Of a stretch of DNA of 63,917 nt, positions 17,476 to 57,021 are shown in pieces (positions within the stretch are counted from its first letter, which is position 1; the number at the start of each line of letters is the position of its first letter). The stretch is from the IMG/VR virus record IMGVR_UViG_2695420475_000004; one strand, 5' to 3'. This DNA is from an uncultured virus (IMG/VR IMGVR_UViG_2695420475_000004). Taxonomy: Duplodnaviria > Heunggongvirae > Uroviricota > Caudoviricetes. A program made the translations under genes and the position numbers. Below the pieces are notes generated by a model. That model searched no databases. It saw only the letters and a program-made list of their open reading frames with translations, and had not been told where the DNA came from.

Positions 17476-17555
17476 TTGACAGTACCTATAGTGCTAGGTA
17501 TTATAAGCAGTGCCAAGAGGTTGGGACTAAACCCACCTAAGAAGGGAGTAAACCC
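17476..17555 (+). promoter_or_regulatory. SigA-type promoter with embedded operator and tandem 5'-UTR hairpins
   Basis: TTGACA-17-TATTAT; operator 17479-17504; hairpins GGG-ACTAAA-CCC and GGG-AGTAAA-CCC before ATG 17556. Confidence 0.75.
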
Positions 17556-18059
17556 ATGTCATCGGCTGAATCAGCCACCAAGACTCCGCTCAGTGTAGGA
17601 CGAAAGACGTTCCTGCACTGTGTTTTCACTACAGCCATCGAGGGCGGCATTCAGCACTGGGCTCGGGTTCACATGTACCACTGGGGTAACCGGAGCGGCA
17701 AGCAGGTCGAAGACGACCTAGACGGCTTCTATGCAGTGATCCGATCCGCAGAAGCCGATATCGACGACGAGAACAACACGGGTTGGGGCATTGCCGGGCT
17801 AGAACACGAGCACACCTTGCGCATCGACCTCAACGTCATCGAACGTGGGACGAACCTGTTCGCCCGATACTGCCGCGGCGAAGTCAACTCCCACGGGATC
17901 GACGTCCCCGAGGAACAGCGCAAGCCGCTGGCCGACGACGCCTACTGGCGACAGTTCCTCGCCGCCGAAGCCACCCACGGGGAGCAAGGCGACTACGACG
18001 CGCTGGTGGCCGACAACATCGTGCAGTTCGGCCTGTTCGGAAGTCTGGTCTACGGATGA
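17556..18059 (+). CDS. Phage early hypothetical protein
   Basis: RBS, first gene after the promoter. Confidence 0.75.
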   Translation: MSSAESATKTPLSVGRKTFLHCVFTTAIEGGIQHWARVHMYHWGNRSGKQVEDDLDGFYAVIRSAEADIDDENNTGWGIAGLEHEHTLRIDLNVIERGTNLFARYCRGEVNSHGIDVPEEQRKPLADDAYWRQFLAAEATHGEQGDYDALVADNIVQFGLFGSLVYG

Positions 18060-18412
18060 GCGACAAGACACCTCGGTTCACCAACATCGGGGACATCCGA
18101 CGCGCCAACAAGAAGGCGGGACTGTTCTGGTTCTCCCCCTCCACCATCGCGGCGCATGGCGCAAGAGTTGAGAGCCGCATCTACGACGAGGGCGTCAGTG
18201 AGGACTACCCCGAGGGATCGCGAGTCTGGGTCGAATCCCGGCGGAATTTCGACGGCACAGCGCGTGAGCACCTGATCGCCCGATTCAACGTCGAGACCTC
18301 CGACATCTCGTACGTCCACATCGACTACACGAACTTGGTTTTCGACTCCGCCAAGAGGGCCGAGAAGCACATCACCGAAAACATGCTTGGAGGCGGCCAT
18401 GGATCCGAATGA
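18056..18412 (+). CDS. Phage hypothetical protein
   Basis: ATGA coupling. Confidence 0.65.
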   Translation: MSDKTPRFTNIGDIRRANKKAGLFWFSPSTIAAHGARVESRIYDEGVSEDYPEGSRVWVESRRNFDGTAREHLIARFNVETSDISYVHIDYTNLVFDSAKRAEKHITENMLGGGHGSE

Positions 18413-18734
18413 GGCGCTGGTGAAGCTGCGCGCGATGGTCCACGCCGAGCGCGCAATCGACAGCAGGTGGACACCCGAGTACGCCAACCAGCGATGCGCA
18501 CTGTGGGCCGAACAGTTCAACGCGCTGGATGAGTGGCTTTCGAAAAGCGGTTCCCTACCGACAGGTTGGGCGCCGCAGGACGCGCAGGAAGCTCTGGCTC
18601 TATACCGGGAGTATCACGAGTGCGAAGGCGATCGCGAGGACGAAGACGATAAGCGGTGGGACTTCATCGATGCCGCACTCTCGGTGCTCAAGCAGCTGGC
18701 CGGCGTCACAGACGAGGAGTTGGTCAATGGCTGA
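18399..18734 (+). CDS. Phage hypothetical protein
   Basis: GGAGG RBS; MDPNEAL...LDEWLSKSGSLP. Confidence 0.65.
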   Translation: MDPNEALVKLRAMVHAERAIDSRWTPEYANQRCALWAEQFNALDEWLSKSGSLPTGWAPQDAQEALALYREYHECEGDREDEDDKRWDFIDAALSVLKQLAGVTDEELVNG

Positions 18735-19020
18735 CATCAAATCAGCGAGCCCGGAGGCCGAAGCCCGCTTCGCCTTGATCAGCACGCTTGACGATCTCAC
18801 CTACAGCGGGGCCGCCGGTCCGGTGCCAGGCATCGGATTGAACCAGAGCGAGGCCGAATTCCTCGCTGAGGTAACTGATTGGATCGGCGAACTAGGCAAG
18901 GCGCTGGTCCGGGTCCGCGAGTCCGTCACAGACGTGATCGATGAGCTGGAGACATTGCGCTCGCAGCAACGTTCAGTCCGGGCCTTCCTTGGCCTCAACA
19001 GTCCAGCAGAAGACGACTGA
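18727..19020 (+). CDS. Phage hypothetical protein
   Basis: GAGGAG RBS; operon packing. Confidence 0.6.
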   Translation: MADIKSASPEAEARFALISTLDDLTYSGAAGPVPGIGLNQSEAEFLAEVTDWIGELGKALVRVRESVTDVIDELETLRSQQRSVRAFLGLNSPAEDD

Positions 19021-19022
19021 GC

Positions 19023-19223
19023 GTGGACATCGCGGCCAGCGTCACTCAGACCGAGCCCGACGGCACCAAGTCCCAGGCCCAAGTCATCGTCAACAGCACC
19101 GGCAACGTCGTCCAGATGGGCGGGGAGAACACGATCGACGCCAGCGACGGCGACCTCGGCGAGCTACTGGCGTGCTTCGCCAGAGTCGCTGCAGACATTG
19201 AAGATTCGGAGGACGCACCATGA
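19023..19223 (+). CDS. Phage hypothetical protein
   Basis: Operon packing. Confidence 0.55.
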   Translation: MDIAASVTQTEPDGTKSQAQVIVNSTGNVVQMGGENTIDASDGDLGELLACFARVAADIEDSEDAP

Positions 19224-19687
19224 CCGATACACCAACGCGCAACACCGAGCTAATGCTCAGAGTATGGACTCACCTGACCGAGCACCCCGAGGCTCACAAC
19301 CAGCGCAACTGGGGTGAGCGCCCATGGGACATCGTGGACATCCATGCGCCGGACGCTGAGATCACCTACGAGAATGTCTGCGGCACAAAGATGTGCCTGT
19401 GTGGTGACGCCATGCTGCTATCAGGGTATCGGCTCGGCTATTTCAAGAGGCGTGCGCGTGCATCGGGCTTCATGCGCCCAGACGGGTCCACCGACGGTGA
19501 CTTCGTCACTGAGGGCGCAGGGCTGCTTGGCCTCACTAACGAAGAGGCAGTTCATCTCTTCACCTGCACGATGGACAACGGCGATGCGCTCATGCTGCTG
19601 CGTTCCCTCATCGACAACGACGGTGAGTTCGACGACGATCTGAAAAGGTGCCTGGACTGCAAACCATCGCACGAGGCCGACTCATGA
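19220..19687 (+). CDS. Phage hypothetical protein
   Basis: GGAGG RBS; ATGA overlap; HNQRNW...CGTKMCLCG. Confidence 0.65.
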   Translation: MTDTPTRNTELMLRVWTHLTEHPEAHNQRNWGERPWDIVDIHAPDAEITYENVCGTKMCLCGDAMLLSGYRLGYFKRRARASGFMRPDGSTDGDFVTEGAGLLGLTNEEAVHLFTCTMDNGDALMLLRSLIDNDGEFDDDLKRCLDCKPSHEADS

Positions 19688-19929
19688 GCGACCAGGACAC
19701 CGTGATCGTCAAGATCAAATGGTCGACTATCGAGTATCACAGCGGGTACTTCCGCGTCCCAAAGGGTTTCGACCCGGACGACTACGACATGGGCAACGCG
19801 ATGAGCGACCATGACGAGGAAACCTACGAATGGCTTAAGCGAGACGATTTCGAGGTCTATGACACGGAGTGGCCCATCGACATGGAAGAGGCAATCGACC
19901 TCGACCTCGAAGGGCACGAACTCGAATGA
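19684..19929 (+). CDS. Acidic hypothetical protein
   Basis: ATGA coupling. Confidence 0.6.
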   Translation: MSDQDTVIVKIKWSTIEYHSGYFRVPKGFDPDDYDMGNAMSDHDEETYEWLKRDDFEVYDTEWPIDMEEAIDLDLEGHELE

Positions 19930-55892: not shown

Positions 55893-55915
55893 CGGCCGTG
55901 CACGCCATTCCCGGA

Positions 55916-55995
55916 TTGACTATACCTATTGTTATAGGTAGTATCATGAGTGCAGAGGGCAGGGAAGAAACCCGCCCACGAGTGGAAGGAACCAC
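55916..55995 (+). promoter_or_regulatory. Promoter with operator and tandem hairpins
   Basis: TTGACT-17-TAGTAT; ACTATACC-N10-GGTAGTAT; GGGCAGGG-AAGAAA-CCCGCCC and GTGG-AAGGAA-CCAC. Confidence 0.78.
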
Positions 55996-55997
55996 GT

Positions 55998-56402
55998 ATG
56001 GCACGTCCCGAATCCGTCAGCGATCTACCCGATCACACTCGACGGTCATTGATTGCCACGATCCGCACCAACGAGTTTGTCGATGACCCCGACATCACGG
56101 CAGCCTATGCAGAATTCGTTCGTGCGGCCGCCGGAGTCGGCGACATTGAGCGCCAGGAAGGTCAGGTGGATCTCTACCGGCAGAGGTCTTCTGAGGATTG
56201 CAACGAGGAATTGGTCGTGGCTCAACATCGTTGGGATGCATTGGAGAAGCGGTACAACGAAGTTCGCAATGGTGCAGTGCCTGCAGACTTCGAGAAGCGC
56301 ACGATCCGAAGATTTGCACTCGACGAAGGACTGCCGGTCCTGCCCGCCATCGCGGAGGAGCAGTCGGTCAGCCAGCTCAAGGAGGCATTGGCCGCCAAGT
56401 AG
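55998..56402 (+). CDS. Hypothetical protein
   Basis: RBS within the hairpin. Confidence 0.65.
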   Translation: MARPESVSDLPDHTRRSLIATIRTNEFVDDPDITAAYAEFVRAAAGVGDIERQEGQVDLYRQRSSEDCNEELVVAQHRWDALEKRYNEVRNGAVPADFEKRTIRRFALDEGLPVLPAIAEEQSVSQLKEALAAK

Positions 56403-56540
56403 GTGTCTCCGCGCAGCTGCAGCGCCGCGTCGGCGGTTACAGCGCGGAACAAGGGGATGTACCCGCCGGGGCCCGACGGCCCCGGCGTTCCAACAGTTTT
56501 CATGAGGCAGGGATGAACCCGCCGGAACAGGAACGAACCT

Positions 56541-56660
56541 ATGATCAGCTATCTCTCGTACGCACCGAGCGACGAGGACCACATCGAACCCGAGCCCTAC
56601 TACGGACCGGTTGAGCCGAACCCGAATCATATCCCCGCCGACCTGGTGGCAGATCGATGA
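56541..56660 (+). CDS. 39-aa small ORF
   Basis: Follows tandem hairpins 56506-56540; ATGA-coupled to a further small ORF at 56657. Confidence 0.5.
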   Translation: MISYLSYAPSDEDHIEPEPYYGPVEPNPNHIPADLVADR

Positions 56661-56950
56661 TAGAAGCATTGATCACCTGGTATCGGCATCGAAAGACCAC
56701 CAGATTCATTGAAGCTCAGCGACATATCGCATGGGCTGAGTCCCTGCGCGACCCCGACGCGCCTATCCCCTACGCGCTCGTCGACGTGCGCGCCGATGCG
56801 GCATGATGACCTGCGTCGGGGTGTTCATACTCGGTCTCATTGGCCTGGTGTGCTGTCCCGAAAACAGACCGCTCTCAACCTTATTTGGCGTGGTCACCCT
56901 GGGGTCAGCGGTGGCCGTTCCATTCCTGGCATTGATCGCCTAAACCAGGT

Positions 56951-57021
56951 TCAATACCGACAACCATAGGTAGTATTGACACAGAGGCAGGGACAAAACC
57001 CGCCCAATCGGAAAGGACCGA
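56951..57021 (+). promoter_or_regulatory. Operator and tandem hairpins
   Basis: TCAATACC-N10-GGTAGTAT; GGCAGGG-ACAAAA-CCCGCC; TCGG-AAAGGA-CCGA. Confidence 0.72.

Follow-up and report, generated by a model that had tools for sequence, protein, structure and literature searches.

The window analysed here, the whole 63,917-nucleotide stretch of the uncultured virus record IMGVR_UViG_2695420475_000004, carries a short repeated element that is predicted to form two consecutive RNA hairpins (H1 and H2) in the 5' leaders of eleven genes; we refer to it as the twin-hairpin module. In a megablast search, 91% of positions 36000-58000 aligned, in reverse orientation and with 93.6% identity, to Mycobacterium phage prophi79-1 (MW584153) from the host M. 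abscessus GD79, and by its sequence the window holds most of a Mycobacterium abscessus prophage of the MabQ type. As described in the text of PMC8092301, prophi79-1 is the sole member of cluster MabQ and integrates at attB-4. Placing its 108 annotated proteins on the window with tblastn located the integrase at 4352-5371, and prophage genes 108 down to 22 reach the window end, so that the leftmost ~21 kb of the prophage lie outside it. The + strand of the window is the strand of the prophi79-1 leftward genes, which are mostly small and of unknown function, with genes for the replication and recombination of DNA and a WXG-100/polymorphic-toxin cassette among the others. The - strand carries the virion and lysis genes.

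A tandem motif in the leaders of leftward genes

The exact word GGANNRAACC, which holds the A-N-N-R-A-A loop and its closing GG/CC, occurs 21 times in the window compared with 3.87 ± 1.97 expected copies, a count reached by none of 100 shuffles, and all 21 copies lie on the + strand. Allowing one mismatch gives 102 matches against 93 expected; near-misses are thus no commoner than chance predicts, and the motif is sharply delimited. Of the 21 exact copies, 19 are located no more than 45 nt upstream of a + strand start codon (binomial P ~3e-24), a concentration that bears out the first-pass annotation of this DNA. They fall into eleven 5' leaders as ten tandem pairs and one single copy, and the start-to-start spacing within pairs is 19-22 nt, mostly 21. 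All eleven sites named in that annotation are present within a few bases of where it had placed them. Two hairpins depart from the pattern that it described, one with a 5-nt loop (56511) and one second hairpin at 57010 (GGAAAGGACC) that is off the core. The spread it called phage-wide did not hold up, as the module stands only before + strand, non-structural genes.

A covariance model, a check suggested with the same annotation, was trained on five window modules and nine copies of them from relatives. It recovered the six untrained window sites with E-values between 4.8e-13 and 4.7e-4, whereas the next match had an E-value of 3.3, and all modules were on the + strand. On prophi79-1 the model finds twelve modules, one of them before gene 13 in the part that is missing from the window. 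The modules of the window and the promoters next to them are listed in Table 1.

Table 1. Twin-hairpin modules of the window, neighbouring promoters and the associated extended -10-like element. Bits, covariance model score; untrained, site not used in training the model.
Feature	Position and strand	H1	H2	Start codon and gene	Bits	Remarks
Promoter	17476..17504 +					sigma-70-like TTGACA-17-TATTAT, 11/12 matches; -10 ends 15 nt before module 1 H1; spacer with inverted repeat ACCTA..TAGGT
Module 1	17519..17558 +	GGTTGGG-ACTAAA-CCCACC 17519-17537	GGG-AGTAAA-CCC 17544-17555	ATG 17556, gp91 homologue (phrog_2355)	54.4	
Promoter	24984..25012 +					TTGACA-17-TAGTAT, 10/12 matches; -10 ends 13 nt before module 2 H1
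Module 2	25025..25063 +	GGC(A)GGG-AGTAAA-CCCGCC 25025-25043	AAAGG-AATGAA-CCTTT 25047-25062	TTG 25061, gp78 homologue (N-terminal Cys4 zinc ribbon)	40.4, untrained	start codon overlaps H2 3' arm
Module 3	36302..36342 +	unrelated hairpin CACC-AAGA-GGTG 36302-36313	GGG-ATTGAA-CCC 36328-36339	ATG 36340, gp65 homologue (basic, AKP-rich N-terminus)	19.1	single motif copy
Module 4	36912..36949 +	GGGG-ATTGAA-CCCC 36912-36925	AGGG-ACTGAA-CCCT 36933-36946	ATG 36947, in frame with annotated gp64 (gene 64, window 36917-37021)		
Promoter	39801-39829					TTGACT-17-TAATGT, by eye; before module 5
Module 5	39841..39881 +	GGC(A)GGG-AACAAA-CCCACC 39841-39859	AAGG-AACGAA-CCTT 39865-39878	ATG 39879, gp57 (double HTH)		identical in all five genomes
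Module 6	41215..41253 +	GTCGG-ATTGAA-CCGAC 41215-41230	GGG-ACAGAA-CCC 41239-41250	ATG 41251, gp52 (DUF7457)	16.8, untrained	no promoter seen
Module 7	47975..48013 +	GG(A)CGGG-ATGGAA-CCCGCC 47975-47993	TGGGG-ATTGAA-CCCCA 47998-48013	ATG 47997, SF2 helicase gp47		start codon 3 nt after H1; module shifted by one unit
Module 8	49929..49969 +	GGCGG-ACTGAA-CCGCC 49929-49944	TGGG-AAGGAA-CCCA 49949-49962	ATG 49967, 44-aa ORF	25.9, untrained	ORF heads operon that ends with exonuclease-like gp41
Promoter	55916-55944					TTGACT-17-TAGTAT, scan; before module 9
Module 9	55957..56000 +	GGGC(A)GGG-AAGAAA-CCCGCCC 55957-55977, -12.6 kcal/mol	GTGG-AAGGAA-CCAC 55982-55995	ATG 55998, 134-aa DUF7432 ORF (55998-56402)		
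Module 10	56506..56543 +	GGC(A)GGG-ATGAA-CCCGCC 56506-56523	AGG-AACGAA-CCT 56529-56540	ATG 56541, gp37 (39 aa)	26.6, untrained	5-nt loop in H1; G+C-rich hairpin upstream
Element AGGTAGTAT	56968-56976					upstream of module 11
Module 11	56986..57027 +	GGC(A)GGG-ACAAAA-CCCGCC 56986-57004	TCGG-AAAGGA-CCGA 57008-57021	ATG 57025, gp34 (DUF6011)	21.4, untrained	H2 one base off core
AGGTAKTRT	9336-9344(-), 12837-12862, 17496-17504, 24987-25012, 36189-36197, 55936-55944, 56968-56976					

H1 has a G+C-rich stem of 4-8 pairs (mean -8.5 kcal/mol), which in six of ten copies contains a single bulged base on the 5' side, in the form GGC(A)GGG...CCCGCC in four and GG(A)CGGG and GGT(T)GGG in the others. H2 has 3-5 pairs (mean -4.2 kcal/mol), and its 5' arm is formed by the run of G within a purine-rich stretch (AGAAGGGA, GGAAAGGA, CGGAAGGA) that resembles an extended Shine-Dalgarno sequence, judged against what we take to be the 3' end of mycobacterial 16S rRNA. 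The second hairpin, whose 5' arm includes Shine-Dalgarno bases, lies over the ribosome-binding site as had been proposed. Its 3' arm ends immediately before the start codon (0 nt) in six of the eleven modules, overlaps a TTG in one and ends 2-4 nt before the start in three; the start codon is ATG in ten of eleven. The position of hairpin 2 at the start codon is thus right for ten modules and wrong for the one at 47978, where the start follows hairpin 1 and H2 coincides with helicase codons 1-6. This is the sole strong H2 (-8.0 kcal/mol), and the module is identical in all five genomes compared below. In module 4 the deposited TTG start of gene 64 sits in the H1 loop while ATG 36947 comes directly after H2, and the latter is therefore the likelier start. 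The prophi79-1 counterpart of module 9 has no annotated gene behind it and is followed by an unannotated open reading frame (ORF).

Of the 25 prophi79-1 leftward genes that are preceded by a gap of 25 nt or more, 11 carry the module, compared with 0 of 17 rightward genes (Fisher P 0.0012), which points to a defined regulon; the twelfth module stands before an ORF without annotation. The genes that carry the module come first in their operons and are gp91, gp78, gp65, gp64, gp57 with its double helix-turn-helix (HTH), gp52, the superfamily 2 (SF2) helicase gp47, gp45, the DUF7432 protein, gp37, gp34 and gp13. Genes without it include DNA polymerase, primase-helicase, the WXG-100/toxin cassette, the integrase and an XRE-like HTH gene, and they mostly use ordinary GGAG-type ribosome sites. 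The marked genes are a non-structural and probably early lytic set. Such a distribution, with only non-structural operons marked and a GGA at the Shine-Dalgarno position, might also be produced by a processing or decay signal, if a phage or host endoribonuclease cut the hairpin loop at early ribosome sites in the way that T4 RegB cuts GGAG in early Shine-Dalgarno sequences. Internal modules do lie between cistrons, where processing would separate messages. However, Pfam and PHROGs scans of the prophage proteins contain no RegB-like nuclease family, and both the tandem layout and the stable H1 would be superfluous for a cleavage site, which leaves this explanation a slim prospect.

A promoter scan placed three modules 13-15 nt behind sigma-70-like promoters, and the same extended -10 element was seen by eye before two more. 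The other modules lie between cistrons and have no visible promoter. The first-pass placement of the bulged hairpin 1 just after the predicted transcription start consequently stands for the three scan-found promoters. The extended -10-like word AGGTAKTRT has 9 copies compared with 0.41 expected and is often one arm of an inverted repeat (ATACTACCTAT...ATAGGTAGTAT), so that divergent intergenic regions contain two -10 boxes arranged back to back. The word probably represents the promoter/operator type of the phage itself and thus corresponds to the extended start-associated sequence (ESAS) of Cluster K mycobacteriophages. The ATG of a RuvC-like gene (9368) and the GTG of an HNH gene (12867) follow a TAGTAT -10 box at distances of just 6 and 4 nt (9353-9370 and 12854-12869), and both genes are probably expressed as leaderless mRNAs from the promoter type that also precedes the twin-hairpin leaders. 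Since AGGTAKTRT promoters are also found before these probably leaderless genes and before rightward genes that lack the module, the module appears to be a separate layer at the mRNA level.

Two exact copies of the motif lie outside the leaders, one within a gene (18835) and one antisense to the lysin A gene (55838), and both are without flank pairing. A degenerate pair is found at 55829-55876, antisense to the 5' end of lysin A, where GGAACGAACC is followed 21 nt on by GGAAAAACC. The pair is kept in four genomes, the covariance model does not detect it and its middle can alternatively fold as CCCGC-CTTGA-GCGGG; its conservation may be owed only to the coding function of the opposite strand. 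At 56948-56957, in the stretch that separates the end of gp35 from the promoter of module 11, the + strand sequence GGTTCAATAC is complementary to the frequent loop variant GGATTGAACC except at one base. This is probably a coincidence, as one-mismatch matches are at chance level overall.

Base pairing, conservation and prophage setting

Bases at the first flank position are complementary in 19 of 21 copies, a count that 0 of 20000 permutations attain (permutation mean 11.5), and four pair types are used, G-C in 13 copies, A-T in three, C-G in two and T-A in one. At the second flank position 13 of 21 copies pair (permutation mean 6.3, P 1.5e-4), and when one bulge is allowed the mean extra stem is 2.43 pairs compared with 1.40 ± 0.26 after permutation (0 of 5000 reach this value). 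Overall the paired share of cells is 73%, compared with 58.9 ± 2.5 after shuffling, and the covariation score of 0.296 exceeds both the shuffled value (0.096; 0 of 500) and the slid controls (at most 0.167). Both core pairs are G-C in all 21 copies. As the flanks covary, the copies occupy one strand only and H2 abuts the start codon, the elements behave as RNA hairpins and not as fixed DNA words, so the earlier argument from compensatory stem changes is upheld. Minimum-energy folds of whole leaders contain the predicted hairpins in most of the 11 cases; at least the leaders at 36902 and 41206 fold otherwise.

A double-stranded DNA operator would offer another explanation for direct repeats that are mostly 21 bp apart, if a phage protein such as the double-HTH gp57 bound them on one helix face and blocked transcription. 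Several HTH proteins are encoded by the prophage, the gp57 gene has its own module, and the orientation of the copies follows transcription as it does in the stoperators described in the texts on Cluster A and MabJ (PMC3203893, PMC9934374). Reading by base identity, however, would not need the complementarity seen in the flanks. The register of the copies is fixed to start codons and not to promoters, the distance from -10 to H1 varies and five modules have no visible promoter; a DNA site would have no reason to keep register with the start codon, which speaks for RNA. In addition, the motif is absent from the rightward arm despite the same promoter type. We regard a DNA operator as quite improbable.

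The ten tandem modules were aligned with their orthologues in up to five genomes and variable columns were counted. Only 1 of 140 columns varies in the core GGA/AACC, compared with 11 of 198 in the stem flanks, 5 of 39 at the N positions, 3 of 20 at the R position and 220 of 1110 in the 55 nt on either side. The difference between the core and the neighbouring DNA (Fisher P 1.4e-11) demonstrates that the core is under purifying selection. H1 is conserved like H2, although nine of the ten H1 copies have no start codon behind them. The H1 at 41215 keeps its loop without Shine-Dalgarno-like bases, which indicates that hairpin and loop are conserved and not ribosome pairing.

These counts bear on the possibility that the leaders work independently of any factor. 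H1 would then shield the mRNA from 5'-end-dependent RNases and H2 would be a self-masked strong ribosome site opened by the 30S subunit, while the shared loop would come from common descent of a duplicated cassette together with a preference for A-rich spacers. At the three scanned promoters H1 starts 13-15 nt behind the -10 box and hence near the predicted 5' end, and H2 is weak enough to melt. The bases 5' of H2 (AGAAGGGA, GGAAAGGA) are like an extended Shine-Dalgarno sequence when set against the presumed 16S 3' end, and five promoter-proximal H1 copies have GGCAGGG..CCCGCC in common, as duplicated cassettes would. Nevertheless, A1, R4-A5-A6 and the closing GG/CC are as invariant in H1 as in H2 (the same single variable core column) while the N positions vary, the loop is retained by internal modules whose H1 stems are unrelated (GTCGG, GGCGG, GGGG), and one-mismatch copies are not enriched, which is unusual for a composition preference. 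A factor-independent leader is accordingly unlikely, although we give it more weight than the other alternatives.

The element was also found in relatives, as the first-pass annotation had suggested looking for. Three complete related proviruses carry it on one strand each (25 of 25 copies; 3-5 in the reversed-pattern control). A scan of IMG/VR for the tandem pattern gave 63 loci. Seven contigs account for 41 of them: five measure 74-76 kb and have seven loci apiece, and two are fragments, one of 28 kb and one of 31 kb, the latter being the record nearest the window. The other 22 loci are singletons or simple repeat arrays. A single pair in a further 78-kb genome was dismissed as chance because it lies inside low-G+C coding sequence. 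Among GTDB species genomes at least 121 loci were found in many unrelated taxa, with one contig holding two loci among the matches listed. No wider family of the tandem motif was found in IMG/VR or among the GTDB matches listed, and on this sequence distribution the module is confined to one narrow prophage cluster.

It is extremely improbable that the leaders are targets of an antisense RNA, a phage small RNA carrying the complement of the motif and pairing with all of them. The reverse complement of the motif has 0 copies in the window and 0 in the three complete relatives, and the single copy in prophi79-1 is inside a tail gene and not conserved; the three degenerate positions in the middle of the motif would also weaken a common duplex. 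We also considered tRNA mimicry, since the reverse complement of the motif is T-arm-like, and rejected it because it is one base short and ARAGORN finds no tRNA. A T-arm-like sequence with a 7-nt loop, GGACTCGAACC at 4319, probably represents a tRNA end left behind at the att site, in line with the absence of an ARAGORN tRNA.

Several features of the window lie outside the modules. The region left of the integrase (1-4345) is not plain host DNA; it contains an integrase C-terminal fragment at 3974-4279 (Phage_integrase, E 2.4e-8) and - strand ORFs like prophage gp71 (67% identity) and gp69 (34% identity), and appears to be what is left of another, related prophage that occupied the same site of attachment. 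Segmental duplications at 28344-35098 are absent from prophi79-1. The duplicated pairs are 28344-28643 and 31356-31655 (96%), 29096-29395 and 32093-32392 (99%), and 33256-33555 and 34386-34685 (100%), and they result in two copies each of a gp71-like gene, a gp69-like gene and a - strand HNH gene. At 21209-24488 a WXG-100 gene is followed by the gene for a 740-aa protein with EspA-like TPR repeats (PF23275, E 1.3e-42) and by a third gene, forming a polymorphic toxin-immunity cassette of a type known from M. abscessus prophages, without a twin-hairpin module. Gene 60 of prophi79-1 (7118-7321; window ~38138-38341, - strand) is labelled 'toxin' and encodes a ribbon-helix-helix domain (RHH_10, E 4.8e-11). 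This domain is more typical of an antitoxin or DNA-binding partner, and the toxin and antitoxin labels may be swapped.

A candidate translational operator and its possible readers

We tentatively propose that the eleven modules act as a cis-acting mRNA-leader operator for a shared trans-acting factor that would set the translation of the early regulon, an explanation that we find quite possible while stopping short of calling it probable. It would account for stems that vary while still pairing, for a strong H1 next to a weak H2, for an H2 that spans the region from Shine-Dalgarno sequence to start codon, and for the defined set of operons. The same loop on two hairpins at a fixed distance suggests that the operator would be read by a factor with two surfaces. 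Such a factor, most likely a phage-encoded protein binding as a dimer or through two domains, would recognize the A-N-N-R-A-A loop and the closing G-G/C-C stem on both hairpins. The stable H1 would provide a firm anchor, occupancy of H2 would compete with the 30S subunit for access to the Shine-Dalgarno sequence, and about eleven operons would be tuned together, most simply by repression. That the leaders are transcribed, that a factor exists, what it is and where it comes from, and which way control runs are all inferred. Cluster K phages, according to the text of PMC3203893, also grow on mycobacteria and have a different tag, from which we infer a phage-specific reader rather than one supplied by the host. 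In its most specific form, a private translational operator at which a phage RNA-binding protein of no known family docks on H1, clamps H2 and so switches the early regulon, the proposal is somewhat doubtful.

Several observations weigh against an operator of this kind. The copies are paralogues within one close phage group (93-99% identity) and thus not independent, so the shuffle counts given above are not probabilities. The spacing of 19-22 nt, mostly 21, also equals two turns of B-DNA, and A-rich spacers and C-runs facing a G-rich Shine-Dalgarno sequence could come partly from ribosome-binding selection alone. One orthologue, in one of the three complete related proviruses, breaks the third H2 pair (A.C), prophi79-1 has a core change (GGAACGGACC), and whole-leader fold energies are only modestly better than those of shuffles (z +0.28 to -3.2). 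Three raw RNA-seq runs with the same species label have 0 reads on 36300-56299, which is not an expression test. Finally, no known RNA-binding domain was detected among 58 + 44 prophage proteins with Pfam or among 43 with PHROGs. The 102 proteins searched with Pfam include no CsrA, Hfq, KH, S1, cold-shock, Com, RegA or coat-protein family, and the dimeric RNA-binding protein of the first-pass annotation has therefore found no counterpart among known domains.

The prophage nevertheless encodes a few proteins that can be named as weak candidates for a reader on account of their sequences, namely a 50-aa protein ending in RHRRKWWRR (49740-49889), the zinc-ribbon proteins gp78, gp75 and gp43, the basic gp65, and gp57. 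Protein-atlas look-ups gave no usable match for gp65 or the 50-aa arginine-rich protein, and relatives of gp78 in IMG/VR are restricted to five near-identical proviruses and one distant match. A DUF3310 protein of phage Adephagia has been speculated to serve translation at the Cluster K start-associated sequence (SAS), as stated in the text of PMC11373665, and the window encodes a DUF3310 protein at 44166-44588 (E 2e-11). We rejected this as evidence for a reader because it is unspecific: tblastn matches occur in 635 phage records from many hosts, often annotated as nucleotide kinase, and also in ~68-kb mycobacteriophage genomes, which are longer than the ~60-kb Cluster K-type records.

Taken as a whole, the observation in the first-pass annotation is confirmed and its interpretation partly supported, namely for RNA hairpins, cover of the ribosome-binding site, proximity to promoters and distinctness from the Cluster K SAS. 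The SAS has been catalogued in mycobacteriophages since 2011 without a mechanism, and the MabQ variant is a new, structured version of it. If the proposal is correct, it would give the first structural and mechanistic handle on the SAS, of which at least one branch would act as RNA hairpins. Free loops, covarying stems and a duplicate copy offer a clear mutational design (loop versus compensatory stem, H1 versus H2) and a bait for the reader, in a host that is a clinical species where phage biology matters for therapy. The modules also improve annotation, since they place the start codons of gp64 and the helicase and reveal an unannotated prophi79-1 leader. Given the narrow cluster and a model that rests on sequence, we consider this a solid lead and not a first-order surprise.

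Comparison with known systems

The first-pass annotation had compared the paired hairpins with CsrA/RsmA sites and with boxB, analogies that hold for the logic only, as the defining features of neither family are present. A bridging dimer of the CsrA/RsmA kind would fit two GGA hairpins ~20 nt apart whose downstream member lies over the Shine-Dalgarno sequence. Ten modules similarly have two sites 19-22 nt apart (within 10-60 nt), one of them over the Shine-Dalgarno sequence. However, the GG of GGA is here paired with an invariant CC in the stem and only the A is in the loop, and the conserved RAACC has no counterpart in a CsrA site. A CsrA-family protein (PF02599) had no match in the 58 + 44 prophage proteins, a search that does not cover the host genome. 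In lambda, nut has one boxA-boxB per early operon with a 5-bp stem and a GNRA-like pentaloop, is bound by the arginine-rich N protein and is not tied to start codons. The modules, in contrast, have hexaloops in tandem copies at 11 places per genome, the second copy abutting the start codon. The N family has no Pfam match in the 102 prophage proteins; the 50-aa protein with the RHRRKWWRR tail is present, at most as a candidate.

Operators of the MS2 and PP7 coat proteins and the translational operators of T4 are start-site hairpins in which a 5' purine is bulged out a few pairs beneath a purine-rich loop, and they are bound by dimers and turn translation off. Their likeness to the modules, a hairpin at the ribosome site or start codon with a 5' bulge, is an analogy only, as they occur as one operator per genome with an unrelated sequence, and no coat-like or RegA-like protein was found among the prophage proteins. 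Stoperators of Cluster A and MabJ phages are also many short asymmetric sites in short intergenic gaps whose orientation follows transcription. Nonetheless they are fixed 13-bp DNA words bound by a repressor, found in both arms, without hairpin covariation or start-codon register, whereas the flanks of the MabQ module covary and three internal positions are free.

Rfam gave 0 matches at gathering score in the whole window, and a less stringent scan of 55800-57100 produced a single hit, which lay on the opposite strand and fell far short of the gathering score. No description of the motif was found in the literature searched on prophi79-1, prophiGD79-1 and MabQ or in the main texts of PMC8092301 and PMC9934374, a statement that does not extend to supplements or to the figures of PMC3203893. 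An SAS-like motif of Microbacterium Cluster EF phages, GGGAAAGGACCCC, whose role is given as unknown in the text of PMC7302621, is likewise a GGGA...CCC word at the ribosome site of about ten genes with a weakly conserved upstream element, and one H2, CGGAAAGGACCG at 57008, looks similar. It differs in coming from another host genus, and the text of PMC7302621 reports neither a tandem copy nor covariation. Its consensus has one chance match in the window.

The closest known system, judged by placement, is the SAS/ESAS of Cluster K, for which the texts of PMC3203893 and PMC11373665 give an unknown role with suspected translation control. As described there, the SAS too is short and asymmetric, of the form GGG...CCC, and occupies the ribosome-binding site within a few bases of the start codon on its upstream side, with 11-19 copies per genome in one orientation, only at non-structural genes and with a strong preference for ATG (here 10/11). 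About half of its copies stand behind a conserved SigA-like promoter with an inverted repeat, the ESAS, although the promoter sequence of the MabQ prophage is unrelated. The 13-bp Cluster K consensus GGGATAGGAGCCC, with up to two mismatches allowed, has one chance match in the window (58066, 2 mismatches) against 1.72 expected. The sequence difference from the SAS noted in the first-pass annotation is thus real, while the closeness of the placement rules had been understated. The Cluster K word is a 13-mer conserved throughout, and the Shine-Dalgarno bases lie at its centre, whereas the MabQ module has three free loop positions, Shine-Dalgarno bases in the 5' arm, and a tandem duplicate with a stable upstream copy. 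Its arms covary, which they rarely do in the Cluster K rows for Anaya, ZoeJ and Pixie (Table S3, PMC12699233): among the SAS variants there, 14 alter an outer GGG/CCC base and one (CGG...CCG) keeps all pairs by a double change. The MabQ module is therefore an element that works like the SAS/ESAS in its placement without being a sequence member of it.

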